Origin: Candidatus Thorarchaeota archaeon
GTDB taxonomy: Archaea; Asgardarchaeota; Thorarchaeia; Thorarchaeales; Thorarchaeaceae
Length of the DNA: 32,000 bases
Assembly: GCA_008080745.1 (NCBI GenBank)
Contig: SHMX01000006.1
Location: 120,001 to 152,000, forward strand
Direction: 5' to 3'
The stretch's first letter is position 1. Each line of letters begins with the position of its first letter. The notes below the pieces were generated by a model that worked only from the letters and a program-made list of their open reading frames with translations, ran no database searches and was not told the DNA's origin. A program made the translations under genes and the position numbers. Shown one piece after another: positions 4,610 to 32,000 of the stretch.

Positions 4610-5752
4610 ATGGAAAAATTGAGCGTGTTCGGGATAATCCATAAATTCCGGAAACCGATTGTTGTTTCTTTGGTTATATGGAGTCTTTTTGTACCTGTAG
4701 TTGATGGAATCATCGTACAGAGAGATAGAAACCGGAATATGCTCTATGGTGAGTTATTCTGGAGCAGGGGATTTGGTGTCTATGACTTGACAGATGAAGA
4801 TCTGAATAATACAATCCCTAACGTACCAGAAGACCATCTATTGACTGACGTCTTGAATGTGACGTATGAATATCCAATAATCACGTTGATGTTTTTTGCA
4901 GGTATTGCTCTCATTGAACCAGGTGTATATGGACCACATTATTTAGCAAATTGGATTCTTATTTTGGTTTCCCATATGAGTATGGTTTTCTTTGTCTATC
5001 TAAGTCAAGATTATTGGAATAAAAAATGGTATCGACAGATATTCGGAGCATACTATTGTTTTGGATTATTTCTTACTGTTGGTTTTGCAAAAATAGAACC
5101 GTTTGTTGATCTTCTCTTTCTGATATCGATTTATTTCCTGAGGGAGAAAAAGTATGTACAAGCCAATATCTTGTTAGGTCTTGCATTTCAGACAAAATTA
5201 TACCCTGCCTATGCATATCCTTTCTTCTTTCTTTCCAATCCCACTGCTTCAATTGCATTTCTATTAACAGCAGGAAGTCTCACATTACCATTGATATTTG
5301 CTGGGGTTTCTAATGAATCCTTAGTCGCCCATCTGCTTAACAGCTCTAGCTATTCAGACATCATAACAAACCCATTTTATATTGGATGGATTTTTGAGAA
5401 TCCTCTCTCTATACTCGCACCTTTGACCTTATTTATTGCATTTCTATATTGTGTTCTTGAAACCAAGAGATGGCGAGGAATTCCAATAATACAACCTAAA
5501 TTTAGAATTCAAGAGCCAATGGCAGTATTGCTGTATCTTATCCCACTAGGTCTTGTCTTCTTGTCTTGGGTTTTGATTTGGTACTATGCTTGGTTCATTA
5601 CTGCCATTTTACTATTTGAGAGAGAAGTAAATGCTGAGAAATACAGGTACATTCTCATTGGTTTTGTAGCAGCACATATAGTAGGAGTAATAGTTAATCC
5701 AGGCTATTTTCTAACCGGACCACTTGAAGAGCTTCTAAGCCATTTCAAATAA
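4610..5752 (+). CDS. Polytopic GT-C fold glycosyltransferase (GT87/DUF2029-like)
   Basis: About 9-10 hydrophobic helices, an acidic first loop (GVYDLTDED) followed by YEYP, and the LGLAFQTKLYP motif typical of GT87/PIG-M-like enzymes. Confidence 0.6.
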   Translation: MEKLSVFGIIHKFRKPIVVSLVIWSLFVPVVDGIIVQRDRNRNMLYGELFWSRGFGVYDLTDEDLNNTIPNVPEDHLLTDVLNVTYEYPIITLMFFAGIALIEPGVYGPHYLANWILILVSHMSMVFFVYLSQDYWNKKWYRQIFGAYYCFGLFLTVGFAKIEPFVDLLFLISIYFLREKKYVQANILLGLAFQTKLYPAYAYPFFFLSNPTASIAFLLTAGSLTLPLIFAGVSNESLVAHLLNSSSYSDIITNPFYIGWIFENPLSILAPLTLFIAFLYCVLETKRWRGIPIIQPKFRIQEPMAVLLYLIPLGLVFLSWVLIWYYAWFITAILLFEREVNAEKYRYILIGFVAAHIVGVIVNPGYFLTGPLEELLSHFK

Positions 5753-16586: not shown

Positions 16587-19500
16587 TTAGGTATCAATAC
16601 CGAGGCTCTTCAATAAAGCCTCCATATCAGCTTTGGATAGGTCTTGAGCCTGTTCAAGAATGATTGCAATTTCTTCCTGAGCAATACCCTTCTGAAGTAG
16701 TTTCTTCCTGAATTCTTCCAAGACTTCTGGTTGTTCTCCTAAGGTCTTAGGCCGTTTAGGTTTTGGTTCTGGTTCGGCAGCAACCTCTTTGGCTTCTGGT
16801 TCCATCAATTCGGTCTCTTCAAGTTTTTCAGGGGCTTCACCTATAGGTTCAGTCACTTCAGGTACCGTTGGAACCTCAGATGGCCTCGTTTCAGCTAATG
16901 CCTCCGCACGTCGAGCTTCCTCTTGAGCAATGACTTCCTTAAGGAAACCAATTCGTTCGCTTACACGCATTCGAGCCAAGTCTAATTTGAAGGCTTCGAG
17001 GTCGCTCTCACCTAGTCCTGTAATCTCAGTAAGACGATCGAGTAATTCATTCATCTCGGGAACATCAATCACAATTGGTGGGTCTTGTACCCTATCAGCA
17101 TCTATAGTGATGGTAGTATGTTTGAATTCATCAGATAGTATATTCATGACCAAATCTTTCCTAGAACTAGCAGGGTATGGTCTTGGAATCTTACCTTTTC
17201 GAACCGATGATATCATGCCATTCAGAACTCGAATTATCTTAGGCACACTATAGATTCGAACATAATAGACAAGTCCCAAAGCTATGAATATGAAACTGAA
17301 TCCACCGACTACCTGTGCAGTTTGTAACAAAGCTTGTTCTGCAGAAATATCAGAGATAATCTCAATTTCGATTGATTGGGTAACATAGTTCTCCCTTGAC
17401 ATTGATATTCGTATTGTGAAGGATCTACCAACATTAACTTGGAAGTATAATTTGTAGACTCCAGGTTCGGTTTCTTGAGTTCTGTCTGGATAATAGGTAA
17501 CATTTCCTTCATTAAAGGAGAGATCAGGTTCTACACCGGATATACCCACTTGATGGTCAAGGTCATAGTATTGAATCTCAATGATTATTACACTGCCTGG
17601 TGAGGTCTGAATTCTCGTCTGTGATGCAGTCAAATTGGTCCGAATCAAGTCTACTGAGATGAATACAGTCTTTGTGGATATTGCATAGATTTCTGTTTGG
17701 AAAGCGATCTCTACTTGGTAGGTTCCTAATATGAGATCATCTGGAATAGCAAGAGCATAGTTCTGACCTACCACTTCCAAACTGACTTGACCAATGTCTG
17801 ACCAGACAGCAATACCATTCAGGTCTGTAATCAATTCTCCAGTTAGTGAATTTGTCACATTGAAATACATCGTGTTAGTTTCATTAATTGGTGTTGAGAA
17901 TTCATCAGGTCCATGAATAATTGCCTCTGTCGGGATGATTGTAACAGCTAATAAAATACCAGCAGTTTGGAAATTCTCTTTACCAATACTTACGGTAATA
18001 TCATAGAACTGAGGTAATGTCAGATTTAGGTGAATATCGATTAGATAGCTACCGTTTTGTAAATCGGTTATTGTTGCATCTGGACCCACCCAAGAGACAA
18101 TCACAGTACCGTTCGATATTGGTTGATTAGCATACGTATCATTGAAGTAAACAACATATGTTACATTCTGACCTGTGTATCCGCTCTGAAGTGAGTCAGA
18201 AGTGGTAAGGTCCGTTAGATGAGGTCGAACGGTCAATGATAATGTTCGCTTTGAGGTTGAATATCCTGTCTTAGTGGCGGTTATACTGATGTAGTAAGTC
18301 TTAGCTGAGAGAAGGCTTGTGTCTATTGTTGATGAGTAAGAACCATCTATTTGCTGAGTCAAAACACCTACAGATACACCTACTTCATAGGATATCAGTG
18401 CATCATCAATAGATACATCATAATAGGTATCGTTGAAAATAAACTCCAAGACTATAGAATCACCATAGAAGACTGTCAAATCGGCCAGGTCTGTGAGGAG
18501 AGTTAGTTTCGATGGGATGGGGTCTACAGATATCACAATCTCAGTATTTAGGATATCATGATTTATTGAACTAGCACTAAGAATCAGGCTATATTGGCCA
18601 TATCCAAATCCAGAAACATTCACCGAGCCCAAGTAGAATCCTGCGGTCCCATTGAAAGTTAGCATCGTGATGGTATCATTCCATTCAGCTTCGACCGTTG
18701 CAGATTGAATCGGTTGGTTATTAGTAGCATCGAATAGATAGATATAGTATGACCCAGTGGTATTTGCTACGACTGAGAGCAATGTAGAACTTGGTTCAAT
18801 GTATCCAGTGGCTTTTGATATCACAAGAGAGAAGGTAGTTTGTCTTGTCTGATAGTATTCACGACTCACTGTAATCTGTGGCTTGTAAATTCCCCAATCA
18901 ACCACACTCGAATCTAAATTATACGAATAAGAGCCGTTATTCAAGTCAGTGAAGTAATAGGTAGAGCCATTCAACAATAGACTGCCATTCATACCACGAA
19001 CAAGAGTTCCATGATATGTATCCTTAACATTGAATCGTATTGTGATGGTCTGACCCCAATCACCATAGTAAGTTGTTTGAGCCAAGATTATCTGGACTGA
19101 GCCAGAACCTGGTTGTACATCGATGCTAATATTGGCTGTTGCATGGTATTGCTTGTTTGCGGCAACTGTAAAGGTGTATTCCTGAGCAACAAGACCAGTC
19201 GTGTTTAAGGTGATACGGTATTCACCATCTCCTAACTCCGTGATTGTAGCTGGTAATCCAGTAAGGTCGGTCCAACTTGTGGTTAGTGTCGCTCCAGATA
19301 GAGGTATACTGTGATCAAAGTCAGTCAAAGTGAGGTTAACTATTAGAGGATCACCCACTGGAATAGTACCTGCACCAGGTGCTTCCGAAATAAGTGAGGT
19401 TTGAATGGCTCTAATAGTTGCAGGTATGTTAGACTCGGTCCTTGATGCATAGAACGGAATACCACTCTTACTTAGTGTCAATTCAATATAGATATCCCCA

Positions 19501-22500
19501 AGTCCACCAAACTGTTCTGATGGAATTATGAGTTGATATGAACCAGAAGATAATATTTCAAGATACCAGATTGGAGTGGTAAGATTCGTAATTGTCAAAT
19601 CAACATTTGCCCCATCAATTCCTACATCACTCAGATAATCTACATATTCGAAGTCAATTGTAATGTTGTCACCGTATGGAGTATCTGCAATGGATGGAAA
19701 CAGAATCTGAGTAGGCCTCTCTATCGTAGTTGCTACTGTATTCTTAGTTCTAACATCGTAGTAAGGTATTGCAGTACTCTTATTGATCTGTAGAGAAATA
19801 CTGTGCGAACTTACCAGTTGCGTAGAATCGAGAATGGTAGAGTTGAAAGATATTTCATAGTATGTTCCATATGAGTAAAGAGAATACTCGCTTGAAGTGA
19901 TTACCAAAGAACTTGGACCATGAGTTAATATGATGTGAGTCTTATTCAACTCGATATTTTCACTGGTGAAAAAGTCTTCAAAACGGAATTCGAAGGTAAC
20001 ATTTTCAAGAAATGATGTATCTCCAGGGGTCTTTGTTAGAATAATCTGGGTAGTTCTTTCACTTATACGAGCATTAACACTTTCACTCAGAGGGAGATAA
20101 TAGGGTTGACCCGAATAAGTAACCTGAATCTGCACCGTATAGATGTCCGGAGCTCCTAATGCGGTACTGTTGATCTCGATTTGATATTGACCATCACCCA
20201 AGTAAGAAACCCAATAATTGGTATTTAGAACAAGAGTATCGATAGAGGTTAAACACGATAAAGCGATACTAGCTCCAGATATGCCAGTACCAGTAGAGTC
20301 ATCGGTATATGAGATTAGGATTGTGGAATTCGTTCCGTATGGAGCTGTATCAGGACTCTCATATCCAAGCTGAGTACTTCTCTTCAAAACATTAATTGTG
20401 AATAGATGAATAGCATCAGCAGCGTAGTTGGACCCAGTGTATAGAATAGTAGCATTGAGGGTGTAAGTTCCGTCGGATACAAAACCTGATGAATTTAGAA
20501 CGATTCTGTACTCTCCATCTCCCAAATATGAAACATCATACCAACCGTCAAGGGAAGTATTCAATGAGAGGTCTCCAGTCATGCCAACTGAGCTTCCTGA
20601 CACTAAATCTGTGTAAACAAAACCAATTGTGACATTATTGCCCCACTGTGGTGAATTGAAAGCAAGATTGCTAAGCTGAGTTGTCCTTAGTGTAACCTCG
20701 ATAGTGAACTGTAAACTAGTTATATCAGCATAGTTTGGTAATCCAGTCCATGTGACAGTCATATGTAATGAGTGGGTACCGATTCCTCCCAATGAGGAAG
20801 TGTCAACAAGTAGAGTGAATACTTTTTCAACAGAGTCATAACTTAAAGTATAGGAAATACCACCCTCATCTACAGAAATCATGAGGTTTGATGAATTGAC
20901 TATCTCACTTGTTGAAAGTGAATCGACATAGGTGAAGGAGAATTCAGCAATTTCTCCATAAGGTGTACTCTCTACTGGAGTATAGTCAATATAGGTTGGG
21001 CGTTCAAGTACCACTAATGTCACGGTCAAGCTCTTATTTTCATACAATGGAGATATTCCTGCTTCCCACATGAAGTCAAGCTGGAACTTGAAGGTGCCAG
21101 TTGTGACAAATAGAGAACTATTCAGATTGAACTGGTAGGTTCCAGGAATAGTTCCTGACTCCACTACATAGAAGTCTGATTGTGTGACAGAGTGACCTGC
21201 AGTTAACGACGTTATTTTTAGAAAGACGTGATTGCTGCTGTTTGATATTCTAGTACTCGTATCTAACTCACGATATACAACCGTGTAACTGAAGTTTTGA
21301 AGACAATACCTCGCCGTAGGAGCAATCTCAAGAAAGACAATAGTATCAGTACCTTTTACTCGTACTGTTGAAGTTAGATCTCCCGGCACGTATTTGACCG
21401 ACCCTTCCCACCAGATTGAGATAGTGAGACTCTTTGTTCCAATAGTGCCCCATTGATCGCTGGGAATTGATATATTATAATGACCATCCCCTGAAGTGGA
21501 TGCATCTACCCAGAATTCAAGAGAAGCAACATCCGGCGATGTAACTGATATTCTCAAGTTACCAGATATATTCGTTATAGGTAAGCTCAGGTCTGTGTCT
21601 TCATAATATACCAAAGCTGTGATGTTATCACCATATTGGGTCTGTTGAATTGGTGAATCAAATTTGAACAATGTCTGATGTCTTCGTACGAGGATGTCAA
21701 TGGAAAATGAATGATTCTGATAACTTGGTCTCTCAATAGTGAAGTTGACAAGATACCATTTCTCGTTAGCACCCTGAGTATCATCATCTTCAGTAAAGAT
21801 TGTAATTTCATATGTTCCAGCAGTTGCGGTTTCTGTCACCGTATAGTTATCTTCGCCTAGAGTGTGATGATTACCCCAGTCACAGATAATGTATGAGCCA
21901 GCACCAGTTATGGGACTACCATCGTCTTCCGACCATGTCAAGAAGAAGGACTCATTTTCACCAACAGGAATAGACAACTGATTCGCGGTATAACTAATTG
22001 AGTTATAGACTTCTCTGACCTCTATAAGAAGATACATCTGAACAGGATTGACAAAGGCTGCTGTTGCATTGATTAATAACTTGTAATTTCCTAATGCTAC
22101 ACCTGTTCCTTCCAACTCAAAGTCATATGTACCATCAAGATTATCAATAACTGTAAATCCTGCAGACCAGTTACACCAAAGAGTACCTCCAGAAATAGGT
22201 GTAGGTGTGGCTGCATCTCTACGGAACTTCACTGTGAAAGATTGGTTGTTTCCGATTCGATCAGAAATTCCAGGATACTGGTCTGATGTTAGAGTTGCAT
22301 CATAATTCGCATTGATTGTAAGTACGCTTGATGTATCATCATAATAGGTGGCAGACCAATTCATCACCATGTAATATTGACCTCTGTCAGGGAGATTACT
22401 AGTTTCAAGAACTAGGGTATATTCCCCATTACCACTGTCTGAGAATGAGCCACTGAGGACTACGTCATTGGTAGAGTTGCGAATTTCGTATGGCATCACC

Positions 22501-24467
22501 CCACCAGAAACTGGTATCGAGCTATCAATATCGTTTGCTTGAATTATCACATAGAGCAAATCACCATAAGTCACATTGGTTAGCCAAGTGCCTATAGCTT
22601 CACTTGGTCCTACGACTTCTAAATTCGTATCGTGTGTAATTGTAAATGTTCTGAGGAAATAACCAGTTGAGTTCCAGATGCTCCCATCAGCACGATTATC
22701 AGTGAATGCTCTAATTGTCCATTCACCTGCAGTGGCATTAGAACCTGCAAAAGTCATATAGTCAGAGATTGCGTACCCACTAGCATCAACAGTTGCATTG
22801 ATACTACCCCAGAAGGCATTGTCAGGGTTGTAAATTGAAATATTAACGACCGAGTTTTCATACTCTACTCCAACATTGATACGAAACCGAGTATCATCAC
22901 CAGCTCTAATGTTTACAAATTGCTCCCAAAGACTACTAGTTGGGTCTTCTAACTCAACATCAGAAATCATGTTGGGAGATGAACTAAGAATCCGCCAATA
23001 TCTGTATCTTCCAACCTCATTGGTTATGTCATAAGTTGATACATTGAGATATCCATCGCCAGGATTACCACCGGAAACGCCTGTAGTGACATTTACAGTT
23101 GGATTCAAAAATGTTGCAACATGATAGACATCACGGTTTGTGGGTATACTGATATTATAGAAATAGCGATTGACATAGCCGTCTGGAATATCAGCGTAAT
23201 AATAAGTTGTGAAGTTTGCTTGAGTTGCGTTTTGAATCTGGACAAACTCACCATATGACGTTTGATCTATTTGATAAACTGTCGGAACGTCATATTGTCT
23301 GCTAAAGAGGTTTGTATCCACATCGAAGTCTATGATAATAATTTCATTGGGATCGGGATTGGTTGGCACTGGAGTCCATGAGAACTCAAGATTCACAGGA
23401 TTTGTAGTCCAAGGTGTGGTTGGTGTCTGTGTTATTGTTCCCACACCCCTTGTAGCACCATCATTTACATCAAGACCATTCATCTGAAGATTGATCTCAC
23501 TTGGAGAAACTTTCGTTTTCAGATAGAGATGAATATTATCCATCCTTGCATTGGGTCCAATTTCTGGATCGTAACCAACAGTATCCGTACACCATAGACC
23601 AACTTGAAGAGTGATGGTGTTATCTGTGAATATTGTTGTTGGAACACTAACTAGACCGGAACTGAACCATTGTGCCTCCGCTGCAATATCACCAAACGCA
23701 AGAGCCCAAACTGAATTAGTTGGGTCGGTATCCTCAATCATTGCATAAATGGAGAAGCTACCACTGAGGTCATAGCTGACATCATCATATGTATCAGCAA
23801 AATAGTCAAGTGATAGACCAGCCCAAACAACATCTCCACGATCGATAGTAACAGATTGCTCAGCATAAGCCCGGTCACCACTATCATAGAAATAGGGCGC
23901 AGAACTCGATGATGAATTTAACTCGAACTTCACACAATCATCATCGGTTTCATGTCCATCATCCATCCAAGTTGAATATGGGATACTATAGCCACCACCA
24001 GCACCAGTTTCATCAAGGGTCCAACTAGTAGCACTCCCAGTGAAGCCGGGGTTTAGATACCAAGTTCTGTTTTCCGTGAGACCACTGATTTCTGCTTGAA
24101 CATTATATGATTCCCAACCGCTACCAGTTGGAATCTGAATAGTATCGGTTGTAGTAGTATTATCAGTGAAATAGGACATACTCCTATCGTTCCAGGTATC
24201 TGACCGATTACCATACTCAGAACCAATCAAAGGAGAGGATGTAGCATTAACCTCGACCCATCCATCTTCCGTTAGTACATACTTGTGAAGCTCTTCATTT
24301 GGGGCGATTTCGATAGTATCACCATTTCCAATATCTACAATTCTCGAATCTTCAGGTTGACTTCCAATATATTGAGAAGGCACAAGATTGGGGGTGATAG
24401 AGCCTATTTGAAATATCAATAGCATTGCAACCATTGCAACTAGAATTTGACCGTGTAGCTTCTTCAT
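16587..24467 (-). CDS. Giant type I membrane surface protein A (2626 aa): signal peptide, beta-sandwich head, about 17 Ig-like repeats, TM helix, about 223-aa cytoplasmic tail
   Basis: N-terminus MKKLHGQILVAMVAMLLIFQIG, Ser/Thr/Asn-rich beta repeats with recurring GxY motifs, many N-x-S/T sequons, and TM VVGGFSFIFIALGLVYYV. RBS GGAGG at 24477-24481. Confidence 0.9.
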   Translation of the reverse strand: MKKLHGQILVAMVAMLLIFQIGSITPNLVPSQYIGSQPEDSRIVDIGNGDTIEIAPNEELHKYVLTEDGWVEVNATSSPLIGSEYGNRSDTWNDRSMSYFTDNTTTTDTIQIPTGSGWESYNVQAEISGLTENRTWYLNPGFTGSATSWTLDETGAGGGYSIPYSTWMDDGHETDDDCVKFELNSSSSSAPYFYDSGDRAYAEQSVTIDRGDVVWAGLSLDYFADTYDDVSYDLSGSFSIYAMIEDTDPTNSVWALAFGDIAAEAQWFSSGLVSVPTTIFTDNTITLQVGLWCTDTVGYDPEIGPNARMDNIHLYLKTKVSPSEINLQMNGLDVNDGATRGVGTITQTPTTPWTTNPVNLEFSWTPVPTNPDPNEIIIIDFDVDTNLFSRQYDVPTVYQIDQTSYGEFVQIQNATQANFTTYYYADIPDGYVNRYFYNISIPTNRDVYHVATFLNPTVNVTTGVSGGNPGDGYLNVSTYDITNEVGRYRYWRILSSSPNMISDVELEDPTSSLWEQFVNIRAGDDTRFRINVGVEYENSVVNISIYNPDNAFWGSINATVDASGYAISDYMTFAGSNATAGEWTIRAFTDNRADGSIWNSTGYFLRTFTITHDTNLEVVGPSEAIGTWLTNVTYGDLLYVIIQANDIDSSIPVSGGVMPYEIRNSTNDVVLSGSFSDSGNGEYTLVLETSNLPDRGQYYMVMNWSATYYDDTSSVLTINANYDATLTSDQYPGISDRIGNNQSFTVKFRRDAATPTPISGGTLWCNWSAGFTVIDNLDGTYDFELEGTGVALGNYKLLINATAAFVNPVQMYLLIEVREVYNSISYTANQLSIPVGENESFFLTWSEDDGSPITGAGSYIICDWGNHHTLGEDNYTVTETATAGTYEITIFTEDDDTQGANEKWYLVNFTIERPSYQNHSFSIDILVRRHQTLFKFDSPIQQTQYGDNITALVYYEDTDLSLPITNISGNLRISVTSPDVASLEFWVDASTSGDGHYNISIPSDQWGTIGTKSLTISIWWEGSVKYVPGDLTSTVRVKGTDTIVFLEIAPTARYCLQNFSYTVVYRELDTSTRISNSSNHVFLKITSLTAGHSVTQSDFYVVESGTIPGTYQFNLNSSLFVTTGTFKFQLDFMWEAGISPLYENKSLTVTLVVLERPTYIDYTPVESTPYGEIAEFSFTYVDSLSTSEIVNSSNLMISVDEGGISYTLSYDSVEKVFTLLVDTSSLGGIGTHSLHMTVTWTGLPNYADITSLQFTIEVTLRTTQLSNLAFNSPQWGNNVTIGFVYTDLVSGSSVGMTGDLSLNTSLDGWYDVSYLGDGEYRIVLNSSGFVSDGTYTLNATILYTGSNYAADAIHLFTINVLKRSTQLGYESPDTAPYGTNSTILISYTDDSTGTGISGASIALSCLTSIDTLVLNTNYWVSYLGDGQYQIEINSTALGAPDIYTVQIQVTYSGQPYYLPLSESVNARISERTTQIILTKTPGDTSFLENVTFEFRFEDFFTSENIELNKTHIILTHGPSSLVITSSEYSLYSYGTYYEISFNSTILDSTQLVSSHSISLQINKSTAIPYYDVRTKNTVATTIERPTQILFPSIADTPYGDNITIDFEYVDYLSDVGIDGANVDLTITNLTTPIWYLEILSSGSYQLIIPSEQFGGLGDIYIELTLSKSGIPFYASRTESNIPATIRAIQTSLISEAPGAGTIPVGDPLIVNLTLTDFDHSIPLSGATLTTSWTDLTGLPATITELGDGEYRITLNTTGLVAQEYTFTVAANKQYHATANISIDVQPGSGSVQIILAQTTYYGDWGQTITIRFNVKDTYHGTLVRGMNGSLLLNGSTYYFTDLNNGSYSYNLDSSVVDWGIYKPQITVSREYYQTRQTTFSLVISKATGYIEPSSTLLSVVANTTGSYYIYLFDATNNQPIQSATVEAEWNDTITMLTFNGTAGFYLGSVNVSGFGYGQYSLILSASSINHDILNTEIVISVDPIPSKLTLLTDLADLTVFYGDSIVLEFIFNDTYYDVSIDDALISYEVGVSVGVLTQQIDGSYSSTIDTSLLSAKTYYISITATKTGYSTSKRTLSLTVRPHLTDLTTSDSLQSGYTGQNVTYVVYFNDTYANQPISNGTVIVSWVGPDATITDLQNGSYLIDIHLNLTLPQFYDITVSIGKENFQTAGILLAVTIIPTEAIIHGPDEFSTPINETNTMYFNVTNSLTGELITDLNGIAVWSDIGQVSLEVVGQNYALAIPDDLILGTYQVEIAFQTEIYAISTKTVFISVDLIRTNLTASQTRIQTSPGSVIIIEIQYYDLDHQVGISGVEPDLSFNEGNVTYYPDRTQETEPGVYKLYFQVNVGRSFTIRISMSRENYVTQSIEIEIISDISAEQALLQTAQVVGGFSFIFIALGLVYYVRIYSVPKIIRVLNGMISSVRKGKIPRPYPASSRKDLVMNILSDEFKHTTITIDADRVQDPPIVIDVPEMNELLDRLTEITGLGESDLEAFKLDLARMRVSERIGFLKEVIAQEEARRAEALAETRPSEVPTVPEVTEPIGEAPEKLEETELMEPEAKEVAAEPEPKPKRPKTLGEQPEVLEEFRKKLLQKGIAQEEIAIILEQAQDLSKADMEALLKSLGIDT
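17350..22635 (-). repeat. Array of about 17 diverged Ig-like (~100 aa) protein repeats in giant protein A
   Basis: I counted 17 equivalent (D/N)GxY-type strands (e.g. SGNGEYTL, NLDGTYDF, LGDGEYRI twice, LNNGSYSY, EPGVYKL). Boundaries are approximate. Confidence 0.65.
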
Positions 24468-27400
24468 TATTCCATTCCTCCTAGCTGATCAATTAAAGCA
24501 TCAACTTCGGCTTTGGAAAGCTCCCTTGCCTGTTCAATCATGATTTCAACCTCAGATTCGCTGATACCCATCCTAAGTAGTTTCTCTTGAAGGTCATCCA
24601 GTTCAGTCTCACTCAATTTCTGTTTGACTTCACGTTCTTCAACAGATTCCTCTTCTCCTTCTGCCTCCGCTAACTCCTTAGCCCGTCGAGACCTTTCCTG
24701 CCGGATTACTTCACTGATAAAGCCAGCCCTCTCGCTGGGTCGCATGGCCTCCAAATTCGTCCGGAGCGTTTGAACGTCGGCATCAGTAAGACCCACTACT
24801 TTTGCTAATTCGTCAAGAAGTTCTTCGACATCAAGAATCTGTATTTCAATAGTTGAAGGAGTAATATCATCTGGTGTCTTCCTGATACCCATAGGAAGTA
24901 ATTCTTCATTCATCATAGATAGAATCAATCTATTACGAATCATGACATCCTCTGGTTTAGGAATACCACCCTTAGAGATGACTTTCAACATACGTTGTAT
25001 CTTTCTAACAAGCTTGGGAACAGACAATACCCGAATATACAAGGCAGCAAGAATAGCTATTCCAATAATTCCCAATCCAGTATAGGTGAATCCTGATACC
25101 AATGCTTGTTGTTCTGGTGGTATCTCTGAAAATACTACAACATTGATAGTTTGAGTCTGATAATCACTAAGACTCAAGGTTATTGTAATCTCATAAGTAG
25201 CAACAGCAGGTGGTATAAATGCAAATACATAGGTTCCATTACCGAAATCGATTTCTTGGTCGGTCAATCTCGTTAGGGATAGATTGGGTGTCGCATTATT
25301 AGCTCCAGCAATAGGAACATTGTGATCTACGTCCATATAGGTTACACGGACATAAATAACACGTCCAGAATATACTGTGGCTGGCAATGGTTCATAAATT
25401 AGCTCAGTGTTTATTTCCCTAATTCTCAAATTGAACACTAATTCAGTCTGGCTATAGTTCCCTTTACTGATTATAATCCGAATCCTATAGGGTTCATCAC
25501 GAATATCCAATCTCGAAATATCTGTAGCATCAGGCCCAAATACGTATGTTCCATTCCCCAGGTCAATTAGATTTACTGTGCCAAACTCCCATATTGCTGA
25601 GGCTGTGGCACCTGTTACCAATTCATCATGCAGAATGTCCATGTAATCAAAAGCTACCGAGTAATCATCACCAACGGGGAATGTGAACTCATCGTTTCCT
25701 ACTACCTCGGTACTAATCGGCCTAACTAAGAGCTTAACATTGGTAAATGAATAAGCATGATTTTGTTTGCTTAGTGTGATGGATATGCCTCTTGCAATAC
25801 TTCCAGCATATACCATAGAGGAGTTCAGGGTTAGCGAATAGTTACCTCCACCCTCGTTGACCAAACTTCCTGTAAAGCCTTCGAAGATGAAACTAGATGT
25901 TGCATTATCAATTCCAAGATTGGAATGGGTATTGTTATAGTAGAATCTGAATGTTGCATTCTCTCCATAGAAGACAGAAATCAGAGCAGGACCTACAATA
26001 TCAATCTTAGTTGGAATCTTTAGAACTTGCAGAGTGACATCAATTGTTGCAGGCGAGTAGCCAGATAGACTGCTTGAAACGGTCAAGACCCATTCACGAA
26101 TATCGATAGAACTGGTTGGAACCATAGCTGAATACCAGCCAGTTCCCAATTCGGTCATGTTGCCAACTACAGTGCCCACGCTATAAGTAAGAGTTGAACC
26201 TAATACAGGAATATTTAGTTCAGTGTTGTTCAAATATACGGTAACATTGACTTCATCACCATATACCACGGGTAGAACAGAATTATCGTTCAATATCGAT
26301 AATTCAGTGGAGGCCTCGCTGACCTCAATTATAAGTTGTGTAGATACTGTCTTGTAGTTTGTCGAGTTGGCGGAAACCTGTATTTGATGAGATCCTACTG
26401 TTATACCGGAGATAGTGAATTGACCAATATATTTTGATTCAACCGCACTCCAGTAGATTTGACCAGAACCACCCGTCCATGAATAGGTTACGATGCCAGT
26501 CGATATGGGAGTAGAATCGGATTTAATGAGATATTCAACCTCAATTGAAACTGTCTGCCCATTAACTGTGATGTAAGAGTCTAGAATTGCATCTATGGAT
26601 GTACTGACTTTCGCTATTCGAATCTGGAAATCTCTTTGTACACTCTCATAATTCTTTAATGATGAAATAAAGGTAACAGAATATTCTCCTGCATTGAATG
26701 AAGACGAAAGTATCGAATAGTTGTATATTCCTGGAGAAACTTCTGTCAGATTGAATATTTGTTCGCTTATCGACATATTTGCGAGGGCTCCAATTACGGG
26801 TGAGCCATCACGGGCATCAGTGATATTTGCTGAGAACTCGATTGAGTCACCCCAAATCGGATCTGTAGGTGTTGCAATAATTTCCATTGTCACAGGAACA
26901 GCAGCTAGGACAATATCAGCCAGGATTGATTTGTTCAAGTGGAGATACTTTTCAGCACTAAATGAACAACTGTAAATCTCAGCATCAAGTCCACTTGTTT
27001 CAATTGTTACATTGTAAATACCATTACCCAGTTCTACAATTGTTATAGAAGTACCATATAATGAATTCCAATTAGAACTCACAATACCTCCCTCTATCCC
27101 CTCACCAGATATCTGGTTGATGTAGGTAAGATTGCCTACGACTACATCCCCTATGTAGTTAGTGGAGGTATCTGATATTTCAAAGGAAAGCGTAGTTGAT
27201 ACCGGATTGACAGTGATAGCAAATCTCAACATCGTTTTATTCTGATAGAAGGGTGAGCCACTCCAAGAAAAGTTGGCATAGAAAGTGAATCGACCGAGGG
27301 TAAGAAGTGCAGTGGTGTTGATTGATACCGAATAAGTCCCATCTACATTATCAGTAATCCAATATTGGATTGGTGTGATATTCACACATTGAATACTGAC

Positions 27401-30400
27401 CGATGCACCTGAAATAGCCGTTCCATCAATGTAGTCGGAATATGATAATAATGCACTGGCATTTAATGTGAAGTATGCAGGTGGTGTTGATAGAACAGAT
27501 ACCTGAGTAGGTCGAGAGGTGATAGTAGCTTCTGTACTAACCGTAGCGTTAGCGTAATACGGCTCGGTATCGCTCCAGAAGAATTTCACTGAGATATCAT
27601 GACCAGATTCTAGATAGGAAGTGAGGATGGTAGAGAGAATCGATATTGAATAAATTCCTACTGAACCCGATAACGTATACTGACTTGATAAAAGAACAGT
27701 ACCGCCACCATGTGTAAGAATCAAGTTACTCTTATCCAATTCTATAGGACTGTCCAGAAGTGAATCTGAGATCGAAATTTCAAAGGAAACATTCTCACCA
27801 AAGGGTGTATTGAGAGGTGATTTCGAAACGGTAAGAGAAACAATTCGTCTCGATACCTCAATATCTACATCTCTTACTCGTGTCTGATAGTAAGGAGAGC
27901 CAGTGAAGCCCGCAGTGATGGAAATAGTATAGGTTCCGAAATTACCCAAGGCAACAGTATCGATACTTATTATGTAATGTCCATCACCTTCATCGGTAAC
28001 CCAATAGTTATCATTCAAAACCAAAGTTGCCTCTGAGCACGATGCAACTACAGTCGCACCAACTATTCCTGCTGCATTATTATCATCAGTATAATAAACA
28101 GTTATGTTTGCTAGACTAAGGTAAGGAGTTAGGTCGGGCAATTCGCTAGTTAATTGAGCGCGTCTTTCTGTAACAGTTAGATAGAACAAATCTGTTGCAT
28201 CTACTGCATAGCGAGAGCCAGTATATGCTGCGTACGCGGATATTGCATAAGTGCCTGGTGTTACCAAGCCTGTGGTATTAAGATGCAATGTATAAGTGCC
28301 ATCACCATTGTCTATGAAGACATAGAAACCAGATAATGAACCATTCAGTGATAAAATGGCTCCATCCATACCTATGGATGTTCCATCATCAGTATCGGTA
28401 TAGGTGAATACGAGAGTAAGATTGTTTTGATATTGTATCGGTGAATAGGTACCATGAGTCAGCTCAGTATATCTCTCACGTACTTTGATTTGAATAGTAA
28501 TCGAGCTCTTGTTTTGATAATATGGTGAACCTTCCCAAATGATGTCGATATGGAAGCTATGTGTTCCCGGAGTCCAAGAAGAGGTATCAATCTCGATCTT
28601 GAATATGCCAGTGCTATCTCCTTCGTAGTAAATTTGGTAGGTGATTGACTCTTGTATTGAAATTTGAAGATGTGTGCTATTACGAATTGCCTCGGTGGAT
28701 AAAACATCCTTGTAGATGAGTGTGAGATTTACAAGTTCATCATATGGAGTAACTGGCAGCGGATTCCATTCGACAGTAGTTTGTCGATATGTCGAAGTTA
28801 CTGTTACTACAATCGATTGATTCTCGTAAAGAGGTAAAGCTCCATTAGTCCAATTGAACATGATTCTCAATTGGCAGTCAACCAAACCGCTCAGCGCGGA
28901 AGTATTGAATTCAAACCGATATTCACCGGGATTAGTGAATGGATTAATCTCTGTGATGAGGAAATCTGATTGTGTAATGGTCTCTCCAGAAGTGAGGACT
29001 GTGATGTAGATGTGAACATTCCCAGCATAAGAACCAGTAGAATTAACGATTCCTGTGGTATTTGCGGTATCATAGTAAATTATTGAAAACGTGAGGTTTT
29101 CTAGATAGGGAGTCATAACAGGATTATCACCGATGAATATGTCAGTGGGAGTGCTTGTTATCGTTACAGAGGTCTCAATTGAGAGGTCTTCATATTTGTC
29201 AGTTGCTCCGGTCCAGAAGATTTCAATTGTCAGATTACGTTCTCCTACTGAACCCCATTGATCAGCTGGGATGAGTATTAGGTATTCTCCAGGATTTGTT
29301 CCATTCTCGACTGTAAATATAACGGGATTTCCGTCACTAGTGACATTTACTAGTACTGCGAAATCATTGAGGGTTCCATTTTCTATACCCGCCTCAACAT
29401 CAGAGTCATAGTACAGAACAGTTGCCTCAATATCAGCTGTATAGGGAGTAGGATCAATGGAGTTCACTAAATCAAATGATGTGAGATGAGTGCGTAGTTC
29501 AACAGTAATAGTAAAGGTATGATTCTGAGAACCATATCTCTCCACATTAAAGACAACGGTGAAGCTACCAAGAGGATCATCATTTAGCGAATTTAAATCA
29601 ACAGTATAGATACCAGGTTCAACTTCAGTAACAGTATAATTTGTATCCCCTATACTATGAAATTCAGTCCAATTGCAGCTTATCTCACTCTCAGCGTATT
29701 GGATTGGTTGATTTGCATCAGTATCAGTATATGTAATATTTAGAGAACCAGTGTAGCCTACCGGTATTGAAACGAAGCTAGTTGAACGGATAACAGATGT
29801 GTGAACATCTCGAACCTGAACTGAAAGTGCTATTGAACGTGATTCGCAGAAGTCTTTTGTCGCAGTGATATTGATGTCGTATAATCCAAGCGTTACACCA
29901 CTGGTATTGAAGCTAATAGTGTAATGTCCAGGATTCCCAACAACTGCCTCTACGCTATAAGATGTAAGAGTCCAATTAGTGATGATGGATGCATCCGTAA
30001 TCGGCTGACCCAATTGGTCCTCATAGTATACGTCCATCTCAGCGATGTATCCACTAGGCACGTTAATACCAGGTGCATCTTCAGAGAAGAACTCAGTAGT
30101 ATATACAACATTTAATGTGAAGGTATCACTAACCGAGTCATAGTTGTTCTTTGTCCAATCTAGCTGAATGGGATACTGCCCATTGCTGGGTAAAAGAGAA
30201 GTATCTAATGAAACGCTGTATTCTCCAGTGCCCATGTTACTAACTATACCTGAGCCAGCAGCCCAATCATAAGTCATAACACCATCTGGGACCAATTCGT
30301 TAGCATCAGTATCGTTTATCCTCAGTTGGAGAAGGACAACATCACCATATGTCACATTTTTGCTCCAAGAGGTTTCTGAACCAATTGGATATTTAACCAG

Positions 30401-31999
30401 CATATCTGTACTATGATCAATATCAAATAATCTCCTGAAGAAACCAACATTGTGAATCTCATTCGAGCTACTAATACTATCATTTACAAAAGCCTGAACT
30501 TCCCAGTTACCGACAGATGCATTATTGGCCTCTAGAAAGATATAGTCACTTATCGCATAACCAGAAGAAACAGTTGCTGATAGTGAGTACCATTTAGCAA
30601 CATCTGGGTCGTATACATCAAATGTCACAATATCCCCATCATATGAACCGGGAACTGTAGCCCTAAATCGGGTTTGTTCATTGGCTCTGAAGGTTCTTGT
30701 ACTAGACCATTCAGATTGGGTTGAGTCCCATACTTCAAGGTTAGTAATCATATTAGGCGAGTTACCTTTGATCAACCAAAATCCATTCTGATAAATAGTT
30801 GTGATGTCATAGACAGAAACATTTACCACTTCATCGCCAGGTTGTCCCTGATTCCAGCCATAACTCAGATTTGTTGCTCTATCAAAGGGTTCAGCTACAA
30901 AGGTTACATCTCTATTGGTAGGAATTGATACATTGAATGAATATTCGGGCTCGTATCCATCTGGAACTGCTGCATAGTAATTTGTTGTCCATTGTACATT
31001 TGAAGCATTAGAAACAGAATAGGTTTCTCCAGAGTTGAAAAGAGTATCATAAACGGTCATACCACCATGCTTCTTTGCAAATGCCTTGACATCTACATCA
31101 AATTCAATACTAATATCTAAATCGGGGTCCGGGGTAGCTGGAGTAGGAGTCCAAGTGAAGTTGGCAAGTGCATTACTAGTCCAAGCTGGATCTGCCTGAT
31201 AGATGGCGTATCCCTCACCAAAAACAGATGCTCCACCAATGTCACTAACTGAATTTCCATTCATCTCCATATTAATCTGTGATGGCTTTACTTTTGCTTT
31301 TACATAGACGTAAATATTGTCAAATCTTACCTCTGGACGAATATCTTGATTACGATACCATTCTTTCTGAGTTACTCTTAGGCCTAATGTGAGGTCTAAA
31401 TTATTTGGATCTACTTCCGTAGTACTTGCTTCAACAAGACCCGTTGAATACCAAGTATTTGAAGCCAATGTTGGATCTTCAAGACTCCGCCTCCATAGAT
31501 AATCCCCTCCACTATCAGGATCACCATCAGCAACATACATCTCAAAGAAGCCACCCATGATACCCCAACCGCGTAAATCTGCCCAATGGTCAACTGATAC
31601 ACCAATCCAAGTGACTTCACCACGATTGATGTTCAGATTTTGAGTGGCATATGTTTTATCATCTAAATTATACCAATAACCATACGTAGAGTCAGGACGA
31701 TCATCATACCAATAACCATCCATTCTAAGACTAAGAGCAGGATTTCCACTACCATGTCCATTTGCCTCCCACCGAGAATTGAGTTTCATATGACCGCCAC
31801 TCTCAAGGGAATAGACATAACCAGTTGAATTAATTGCAACTCCATAATTGAAATAGAATTCTCCGTTACCCGTACCTTTGCTTCCCCATTGATATTGATA
31901 ACTGTCAATTCCAGAGTCATAAACTAATACTCGATGGTCTCCAGAGTCACATATGAAAACATCACCTGATGAGTCTATGGCAAGTCCTCGAGGGTCTCG
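24467..31999 (-). CDS. Giant type I membrane surface protein B (at least 2510 aa, 5'-truncated), paralog of A, with NHL repeats at the visible N-terminus
   Basis: The frame stays open for 70 more codons upstream of the ORF-track ATG 31789, to the window edge. It is colinear with protein A, with TM FTYTGLGIIGIAILAALYI and a tail of about 188 aa. Its TAA shares base 24467 with the ATG of A. Confidence 0.9.
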   Translation of the reverse strand, partial: RDPRGLAIDSSGDVFICDSGDHRVLVYDSGIDSYQYQWGSKGTGNGEFYFNYGVAINSTGYVYSLESGGHMKLNSRWEANGHGSGNPALSLRMDGYWYDDRPDSTYGYWYNLDDKTYATQNLNINRGEVTWIGVSVDHWADLRGWGIMGGFFEMYVADGDPDSGGDYLWRRSLEDPTLASNTWYSTGLVEASTTEVDPNNLDLTLGLRVTQKEWYRNQDIRPEVRFDNIYVYVKAKVKPSQINMEMNGNSVSDIGGASVFGEGYAIYQADPAWTSNALANFTWTPTPATPDPDLDISIEFDVDVKAFAKKHGGMTVYDTLFNSGETYSVSNASNVQWTTNYYAAVPDGYEPEYSFNVSIPTNRDVTFVAEPFDRATNLSYGWNQGQPGDEVVNVSVYDITTIYQNGFWLIKGNSPNMITNLEVWDSTQSEWSSTRTFRANEQTRFRATVPGSYDGDIVTFDVYDPDVAKWYSLSATVSSGYAISDYIFLEANNASVGNWEVQAFVNDSISSSNEIHNVGFFRRLFDIDHSTDMLVKYPIGSETSWSKNVTYGDVVLLQLRINDTDANELVPDGVMTYDWAAGSGIVSNMGTGEYSVSLDTSLLPSNGQYPIQLDWTKNNYDSVSDTFTLNVVYTTEFFSEDAPGINVPSGYIAEMDVYYEDQLGQPITDASIITNWTLTSYSVEAVVGNPGHYTISFNTSGVTLGLYDINITATKDFCESRSIALSVQVRDVHTSVIRSTSFVSIPVGYTGSLNITYTDTDANQPIQYAESEISCNWTEFHSIGDTNYTVTEVEPGIYTVDLNSLNDDPLGSFTVVFNVERYGSQNHTFTITVELRTHLTSFDLVNSIDPTPYTADIEATVLYYDSDVEAGIENGTLNDFAVLVNVTSDGNPVIFTVENGTNPGEYLILIPADQWGSVGERNLTIEIFWTGATDKYEDLSIETSVTITSTPTDIFIGDNPVMTPYLENLTFSIIYYDTANTTGIVNSTGSYAGNVHIYITVLTSGETITQSDFLITEINPFTNPGEYRFEFNTSALSGLVDCQLRIMFNWTNGALPLYENQSIVVTVTSTYRQTTVEWNPLPVTPYDELVNLTLIYKDVLSTEAIRNSTHLQISIQESITYQIYYEGDSTGIFKIEIDTSSWTPGTHSFHIDIIWEGSPYYQNKSSITIQIKVRERYTELTHGTYSPIQYQNNLTLVFTYTDTDDGTSIGMDGAILSLNGSLSGFYVFIDNGDGTYTLHLNTTGLVTPGTYAISAYAAYTGSRYAVDATDLFYLTVTERRAQLTSELPDLTPYLSLANITVYYTDDNNAAGIVGATVVASCSEATLVLNDNYWVTDEGDGHYIISIDTVALGNFGTYTISITAGFTGSPYYQTRVRDVDIEVSRRIVSLTVSKSPLNTPFGENVSFEISISDSLLDSPIELDKSNLILTHGGGTVLLSSQYTLSGSVGIYSISILSTILTSYLESGHDISVKFFWSDTEPYYANATVSTEATITSRPTQVSVLSTPPAYFTLNASALLSYSDYIDGTAISGASVSIQCVNITPIQYWITDNVDGTYSVSINTTALLTLGRFTFYANFSWSGSPFYQNKTMLRFAITVNPVSTTLSFEISDTSTNYIGDVVVGNLTYINQISGEGIEGGIVSSNWNSLYGTSITIVELGNGIYNVTIETSGLDAEIYSCSFSAEKYLHLNKSILADIVLAAVPVTMEIIATPTDPIWGDSIEFSANITDARDGSPVIGALANMSISEQIFNLTEVSPGIYNYSILSSSFNAGEYSVTFISSLKNYESVQRDFQIRIAKVSTSIDAILDSYITVNGQTVSIEVEYLIKSDSTPISTGIVTYSWTGGSGQIYWSAVESKYIGQFTISGITVGSHQIQVSANSTNYKTVSTQLIIEVSEASTELSILNDNSVLPVVYGDEVNVTVYLNNTELNIPVLGSTLTYSVGTVVGNMTELGTGWYSAMVPTSSIDIREWVLTVSSSLSGYSPATIDVTLQVLKIPTKIDIVGPALISVFYGENATFRFYYNNTHSNLGIDNATSSFIFEGFTGSLVNEGGGNYSLTLNSSMVYAGSIARGISITLSKQNHAYSFTNVKLLVRPISTEVVGNDEFTFPVGDDYSVAFDYMDILHDELVTGATASAIWEFGTVNLIDLGNGTYVFGPDATDISRLDIRDEPYRIRIIISKGNYSQTELVFNLRIREINTELIYEPLPATVYSGRVIYVRVTYMDVDHNVPIAGANNATPNLSLTRLTDQEIDFGNGTYVFAFIPPAVATYEITITLSLSDYQTQTINVVVFSEIPPEQQALVSGFTYTGLGIIGIAILAALYIRVLSVPKLVRKIQRMLKVISKGGIPKPEDVMIRNRLILSMMNEELLPMGIRKTPDDITPSTIEIQILDVEELLDELAKVVGLTDADVQTLRTNLEAMRPSERAGFISEVIRQERSRRAKELAEAEGEEESVEEREVKQKLSETELDDLQEKLLRMGISESEVEIMIEQARELSKAEVDALIDQLGGME
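25130..30415 (-). repeat. Array of about 17 diverged Ig-like protein repeats in giant protein B
   Basis: I counted 17 equivalent strands (MGTGEYSV, NPGHYTI, EPGIYTV, NGDGTYTL, EGDGHYII, LGNGIYNV, LGNGTYVF, FGNGTYVF and others). Boundaries are approximate. Confidence 0.65.
31790..31999 (-). repeat. Two NHL-type beta-propeller repeats in giant protein B
   Basis: Manual translation gives RDPRGLAIDSSGDVFICDSGDHRVLVYDSGIDSYQYQWGSKGTGNGEFYFNYGVAINSTGYVYSLESGGH, matching the NHL consensus P-x-GLA-x-D-x-x-G-x-V-F/Y-x-x-D-x-x-x-HRV and G-x-x-G-x-G-x-GEF. Confidence 0.85.
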
Positions 32000-32000
32000 T

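Follow-up and report, generated by a model that had tools for sequence, protein, structure and literature searches.

We analysed a 32,000-nt stretch of Candidatus Thorarchaeota archaeon DNA (assembly GCA_008080745.1, contig SHMX01000006.1:120,001-152,000; G000:C6:120001-152000 in our genome numbering), hereafter called the window. Its minus strand carries two long open reading frames, 16587-24467 (gene A) and 24467-31999 (gene B, open at the window edge). The first-pass annotation, made from the DNA alone, had described them as two paralogues of at least 2500 amino acids (aa) joined by a TAATG overlap, sharing a plan of head, about 17 immunoglobulin (Ig)-like units, single transmembrane helix and cytoplasmic tail. 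This description was borne out, with lengths of 2626 aa for A and 2883 aa for B and exactly 17 repeats in each. The ATG start codon of B lies outside the window at G000:C6:153118 (window-equivalent 33118) and has its own signal peptide; a start of B at 31789 was rejected, as the frame extends 1.1 kb past the window to that ATG. The two proteins were 33% identical over 2555 aligned columns, a match well beyond what chance would give, and collinear from head to tail. Hydropathy peaks in A and B were limited to an N-terminal signal and one C-terminal transmembrane helix (type I topology), with about 180-215 cytoplasmic residues following the helix in both; the signal peptides are predicted to be of the Sec type. 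The best explanation is that A and B are ancient paralogues belonging to a family, specific to Thorarchaeia, of giant surface glycoproteins with Ig repeats, a single membrane pass and a tail, and their conservation as a pair supports a coupled, probably equimolar, co-function.

We surveyed 41 relatives first and then all 87 available genomes of the class (Thorarchaeia). Matches were found in 60 of the 87 genomes, and in 36 of them (counted by hand) B-type and A-type heads lay on one contig and strand, with B upstream and the heads 7.67-7.84 kb apart. The other 24 matching genomes had short or split contigs, and no lone A or B was seen in the 60 on a contig long enough to judge. Sixteen pair loci and 17 junctions were read in detail. 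In these loci A measured 2557-2629 aa, and B measured 2564-2618 aa without an NHL propeller and 2879-2909 aa with one. All complete stalks read (13 of A and 16 of B) had 17 repeats (29/29). Orthologues occurring singly or with freely varying repeat counts had been named as the contrary outcome; when this was examined, the class gave 36 paired genomes and always 17 repeats.

A tree built from stalk and tail showed that the A and B clades were reciprocally monophyletic, with largely congruent branching and an outlying family (G025) basal in both, indicating that the A/B duplication is older than the two sampled families of the class. A-B identity within one genome equalled A-B identity across genomes in every domain, which argues that no gene conversion has taken place and that A and B have been kept distinct. 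Two genomes showed the pair changing in number as a unit. In G003 (G003:C22:1-32500), four giant genes stood in a row in the order B-A-B-A, each junction having an ATGA overlap and a GGAGG; the two A copies were sisters, and the two B copies shared a clade with B from a congener. The pair has evidently been duplicated as a unit inside this one genus. In G004 (96% complete; G004:C51:121500-130347), the flanks were intact and about 750 nt separated the TyrRS gene from gene U, which in other genomes lies next to B. Within this gap, at positions 5650-5751 of that segment (L038), B residues 31-64 were still recognizable in a 34-aa remnant (47% identity, E 2e-4), so A and B were lost in one deletion. 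In the single-contig genome G044 (86% complete), the search gave no A/B match.

At the junction, the claim that a GGAGG ribosome-binding site lies inside the final codons of B proved correct, with the motif placed nine bases before the A start (Table 1). A stop/start overlap (TAATG or ATGA/GTGA) was present in 15 of the 17 junctions, the other two being gaps of about 4-5 nt. GGAGG stood nine bases upstream of the A start in 16 of the 17 and was built from the C-terminal Gly-Gly codons of B in 15; the first Gly codon was GGA in all 15, compared with a genome-wide GGA use of 38%, although these sequences are related and make no independent test. The -(L/I)GGxxE ending that contains the two glycines was restricted to B-type tails. 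The 3' end of the 16S rRNA (...GATCACCTCCT) was found in the genome and bears the anti-Shine-Dalgarno sequence CCUCC. Ribosomes ending B may re-initiate on A, which would give a near-equimolar output of the two proteins.

The repeats were delimited with a hidden Markov model (HMM), iterated over the A and B proteins together with orthologues of both and two paralogues. It converged on exactly 17 repeats in A and in B, of 96-122 aa each and mutually about 15-40% identical. Alignment and HMM placed the motif pairs cited earlier in repeats 3, 8 and 9, as had been suggested, and the A and B repeats corresponded one-to-one. A profile of the 34 repeats matched the Ig-like domains of FdeC, an intimin/invasin-type adhesin (PDB 4e9l; E 4.7e-8); its matches to Bap, invasin, filamin and S-layer chains were weaker. 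No Pfam Big family reached its gathering score on A or B. Repeat lengths were specific to position across orthologues (115-122 aa in repeat 5, 110-113 aa in repeat 9 and 103-109 aa in repeat 10). Orthologues resembled each other most in the tail and distal repeats (identity 0.50-0.57), and close to the membrane their identity fell to its minimum (0.37-0.41). Identity between A and B dipped to 0.19-0.28 in repeats 10, 12 and 13, where orthologues keep 41-49%.

Table 1. Features of the A/B locus in window coordinates, unless another coordinate system is named.
Feature	Position	Strand	Description
Gene A	16587..24467	-	2626 aa: signal peptide, head, 17 Ig-like repeats, transmembrane helix, cytoplasmic tail; open reading frame and translation
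Gene B, in-window portion	24467..32000	-	residues 374-2883 of 2883
Coupling junction	24465..24481	-	GGAGG 24481-24477 within the Gly-Gly codons of B, 9-nt spacer, TAATG overlap 24469-24465 (B stop TAA 24469-24467; A start ATG 24467-24465)
A head	22608..24377	-	residues ~31-620: jelly-roll domain, then beta-sandwich domains; AlphaFold2 model
A stalk	17349..22607	-	17 Ig-like repeats, residues 621-2373, 96-116 aa each; iterated HMM
A transmembrane helix	17238..17306	-	residues 2388-2410; hydropathy scan and helix in tail model
A cytoplasmic tail	16590..17237	-	basic juxtamembrane helix, helical module 1, disordered acidic/Pro linker, terminal three-helix module
Final blades of six-bladed NHL propeller of B	31784..32000	-	entire insert is B residues ~147-445
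B head 3' of propeller	30389..31783	-	residues 446-910; homologous to A head
B stalk	25124..30388	-	17 Ig-like repeats, residues 911-2665, one-to-one with those of A
B transmembrane helix	25016..25084	-	residues 2679-2701; hydropathy scan
B cytoplasmic tail	24470..25015	-	modules as in A tail; ends in B-specific (L/I)GGxxE
DUF362-UbiA-PHP-LPG_synthase_TM (flippase-like)-TyrRS block	11713-16548	+	convergent with A; TyrRS between operon and A
Gene U	G000:C6:153298-155454 = L029:1295-3454; window-equivalent 33298-35454	-	719 aa, signal peptide, C-terminal transmembrane anchor

Several compositional features of the stalks were recorded. Lone, apparently unpaired cysteines occurred in repeats 2, 3 and 8, at positions that match between A and B, and further cysteines in repeats 5 and 10 of B only, the latter in 88% of orthologues. 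The positions were 765, 862 and 1405 in A and 1148, 1415, 1694 and 1911 in B. The conserved unpaired cysteines were considered as inter-chain links; the matching positions were present in only 59-82% of orthologues. The ectodomains of A and B were very poor in lysine (1.4%).

AlphaFold2 modelled the A head (residues 30-622) as an all-beta multidomain module with a mean predicted local distance difference test (pLDDT) score of 87.4. In Foldseek searches the first head domain resembled TmCBM61 (TM-score by target 0.61-0.63, probability 1.0, identity 11-12%). The entire head resembled Eph receptor ectodomains and the MAM-Ig-FN region of RPTP, which likewise have a jelly-roll head followed by beta-sandwiches, and the same list also held a Nitrosopumilus S-layer protein. 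An Atlas structure search with the head returned unnamed Asgard clusters alone (TM-score 0.44-0.49). No Pfam or NCBIfam family matched the A head, and the whole of A and B gave only sub-threshold beta-sandwich matches to Pfam and NCBIfam, NHL excepted.

The heads of A and B were about 37% identical, and B alone carried a propeller. Residues ~147-445 of B matched Pfam NHL (PF01436) at E 2.2e-32 in 5 scored stretches and the DUF5128 6-bladed propeller at E 2.2e-13, and six NHL blade motifs could be read in the sequence. The Pfam scan found no NHL in A, which has a short loop of about 9 residues at the corresponding site; model and alignment placed the insertion in this predicted loop of the A jelly-roll. 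The insertion point was identical in all six NHL-bearing B heads that were aligned. Neither A nor B had an FG-GAP or VWA match at E values up to 1. The distribution of NHL over the B tree was patchy: it was present in G000 and G001 but not in their sister G012, and it was also present in the clade of G005, G020, G007 and G013 and in a subset of the g6 and g10 genomes (both genera). This patchiness suggests repeated precise loss, or exchange by recombination.

The cytoplasmic tail was modelled with a pLDDT of 85.7, and an alignment of 74 tail sequences contained 11 invariant columns. A tail query matched 103 clusters among 1.84 billion representatives, in host proteins of up to 5543 aa that fell into recurring length classes; in 81 of 81 well-covered matches the tail ended 0-5 residues from the C-terminus. 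No Pfam family matched the tail, Foldseek gave no PDB fold match at E ≤ 0.001, and in a VIA wide structure search the best hit (Z 6.8) lay on a 62-residue helical hairpin, which is the noise level for helical models. Fold searches neither confirmed nor excluded the idea that the terminal module is UBA-like.

The same tail occurs on other giant proteins of the class. Two single-copy paralogues were recognized in the genome of the window: G000:C1:39552-54620, with 5022 aa and 31 repeats by the same HMM, and G000:C1:44-10237, with at least 3397 aa and at least 30 repeats, cut by the contig end. These proteins have the repeat type, the transmembrane helix and the two-module C-terminal tail in common with A and B, but they have other heads (nothing matching A residues 1-630) and nearly twice the repeats, and they lack a conserved tandem partner and a coupled junction. 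Across five genera, orthologues of the 5022-aa paralogue measured 5022-5071 aa, some outliers apart. When the heads were searched against 5.8 billion proteins, about 97 clusters were returned, nearly all of 2550-2610 aa or, with NHL, of about 2870-2890 aa, and all annotated as hypothetical proteins of Thorarchaeota.

The ectodomains were enriched about 2-fold in N-x-S/T sequons (64 compared with 30.3 ± 5.0, and 66 compared with 36.0 ± 5.2, in shuffled sequences), whereas the tails of A and B contained none. This enrichment agrees with the earlier suggestion that A and B are glycoproteins; the further suggestion that they are clients of the nearby glycosylation genes found little backing. Within one family, synteny of the DUF362-UbiA-PHP-flippase-like operon with the pair was seen in 12 of 15 genomes; in G025 the two are unlinked. 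We therefore rejected the view that this operon is dedicated to the pair, because the synteny is confined to one family and fails in G025, and because the operon persists in G004, which lacks the pair. The plus strand of the window also contained a small LRR protein (826-1998) and, at 4610-5752, a GT87-like membrane glycosyltransferase match (E 6.4e-7, just above the Pfam cut-off).

A check for further paralogues upstream of the window had been proposed. None was found, and the position upstream of B was occupied instead by gene U, which encodes a membrane-anchored protein with an HExxHxxGxxH motif of the metzincin type. Six orthologues, the most distant 32-34% identical, all kept the motif unchanged. 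Comparison of coordinates placed U immediately before B, in the same orientation, in at least 31 genomes of the class. The association has exceptions on both sides: U occurred without the pair in G004 and in other genomes of that genus lacking an A/B match, and the pair occurred without U in G003 and G089. U had no match in Pfam, NCBIfam or PDB sequences, and in the Atlas it gave weak metallopeptidase leads only. We regard U as a candidate membrane metalloprotease of the locus. A paralogue of U (G000:C4:226117-228084, minus strand; 858-aa open frame) was 40% identical to it, and G001 held a comparable second copy.

As described above, 36 genomes are paired, the number of repeats is constant at 17, the junction is conserved, and the pair has been duplicated as a unit and deleted as a unit. 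Taken together, these findings argue for a coupled co-function of A and B, the simplest form of which would be a heterodimeric adhesion or receptor fibril; we judge this reading somewhat more probable than its alternatives combined. Both proteins would be N-glycosylated and would stand as stalks of roughly 70-80 nm (the head on top of 17 domains, each about 4 nm long). Two different heads may thereby be displayed at equal height, most simply by a side-by-side fibril of the two chains. B would be the variable subunit, as suggested by an NHL propeller in some lineages only, and the conserved tails may dock a cytoplasmic partner. The first-pass annotation had proposed equimolar, in-register partners. 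Coupled co-function is supported by the conserved junction and the unit duplication and deletion, whereas in-register physical contact of the A and B stalks, and a surface filament, remain inferences.

Several observations weigh against such pairing. The single-copy 5022-aa orthologues also cluster in length, and there are other length classes in the family; since single-copy paralogues share the stalk and tail and keep their length, a fixed and matched length need not reflect pairing. The matched repeat count of A and B could also be explained by common descent together with length keeping across the family. Stop/start overlaps are common among the operons of this genome. Rate covariation between A and B domains was real, but regional rather than register-specific, with a value of 0.275 on the diagonal, 0.15-0.23 at a shift of ±1 and an off-diagonal mean of -0.04; it separated a distal from a proximal block, in a mirror-tree style comparison of sequences that are not independent. 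The A and B tails showed no charge complementarity, their charges being similar. Prediction of a complex between the last repeat, transmembrane helix and tail of A and those of B gave no answer (score 0.02 compared with a mark of 0.32) and is no evidence either way.

Alternatively, A and B may be co-expressed but physically independent surface receptors or adhesins of the same height, with different ligand specificities, the operon serving joint expression and the length being inherited. We consider this possible but clearly the less probable account. It draws on the length constancy seen likewise in the single-copy 5022-aa class and the other length classes, on the difference between the heads in sequence and in the NHL insert, and on tails without charge complementarity. 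In addition, the divergence of A from B in repeats 10, 12 and 13, where orthologues are conserved, suggests subfunctionalisation. Inheritance of both genes or neither, an unvarying gene order, a conserved coupled junction and the gain and loss of the pair as one unit nevertheless exceed what co-expression would need, yet they are compatible with it.

The coupled co-function of A and B can also be carried to its boldest form, an obligate heterodimeric, integrin-like transmembrane receptor with paralogous 17-domain legs, two different ligand-binding heads (one bearing the NHL propeller) about 70-80 nm out, conserved folded tails signalling inward to a partner, and U maturing or shedding the complex. 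We hold this full scheme to be unlikely.

Less likely again is that A and B are two components of a cell coat or S-layer-like canopy, a structural glycocalyx akin in logic to two-gene S-layer operons. The heavy sequon load would suit such a coat, as would two membrane-anchored partners of fixed height, and the Nitrosopumilus S-layer protein in the Foldseek list and the weak repeat-profile match to S-layer chains point the same way. However, the pair is dispensable, as indicated by its joint loss in G004 and the lack of a match in G044; several further giant paralogues coexist with it; and it would be unusual for lattice proteins to have a lectin-like head, or a cytoplasmic tail that is folded, conserved and about 200 aa long. 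Ordinary tandem duplication with functionally unlinked copies would fit the paralogy, the adjacency and the multi-copy family, but it is scarcely credible for a duplication that predates two sampled families, keeps its order, overlap and Shine-Dalgarno sequence in 36 genomes and shows no gene conversion.

A full-text literature search found no description of the A/B proteins. The class-wide pairing, the fixed 17 + 17 count, the conserved junction, the duplication and deletion of the unit and the upstream HExxHxxGxxH gene are new here. Asgard archaea are the closest prokaryotic relatives of eukaryotes, and how their cells touch their surroundings and partners is almost unknown. The locus offers a concrete two-subunit surface module with a fixed gene order, 17 + 17 domains, a coupled junction, a folded tail and natural knock-outs. 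Should the subunits pair and their tails engage a partner inside the cell, the module would be an example, in a prokaryote, of outside-in wiring through a heterodimeric single-pass receptor. Even without pairing, very long Ig-repeat stalks are held at an exact domain count across an archaeal class, which argues that stalk length is itself a selected trait.

Among archaeal proteins, a published parallel lies in a survey of huge proteins, which notes that archaeal giants, whose function is not understood, typically have a concanavalin-clan domain at their start (PMC11573180). A and B resemble these proteins in being giant and in starting with a lectin-like beta-sandwich, represented in the survey by the N-terminal Laminin_G_3 domain (PMC11573180). 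They differ in falling below its 5000-aa cut-off and in having no Laminin_G_3 Pfam match, and the survey describes neither pairing nor a cytoplasmic tail (PMC11573180). In fold, Eph receptors and RPTP mu/kappa were among the best whole-head matches to A (Foldseek E 5e-8 to 1e-6, probability 0.94-1.0). The TM-scores were low (0.14-0.28), identity was 7-9% and A and B have no kinase or phosphatase, so that the likeness is one of domain types and their order and not of family.

The stalks recall the bacterial giant Ig-repeat adhesins (intimin/invasin/FdeC, SiiE, LapA/MpIBP and Bap), which extend a distal binding module on long Big-type arrays. Those adhesins are anchored in or on the cell wall or an outer membrane, are not known to have a cytoplasmic tail, act as products of single genes and often consist of near-identical repeats in variable number. 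In contrast, the repeats of A and B have diverged to only about 15-40% identity and their number is fixed. The arrangement of the genes recalls SlaA and SlaB of the Sulfolobales, which are encoded by adjacent, co-expressed genes and form a heteromeric surface structure in which one protein is anchored by a C-terminal transmembrane helix. SlaA and SlaB differ from A and B in that they are not known to be paralogues, the membrane anchor belongs to SlaB alone, neither is known to have a folded cytoplasmic tail and the two form a lattice.

In overall plan, A and B are reminiscent of the integrin alpha and beta chains, two type I single-pass subunits with large ectodomains, a beta-propeller in one head, Ig-like legs and tails that dock partners. 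The analogy is functional only: there is no homology, the propeller of B is of the NHL and not the FG-GAP type, and a vWA/beta-I domain is lacking. A and B are moreover paralogues of each other, and their stalks are four to five times longer than those of integrins.

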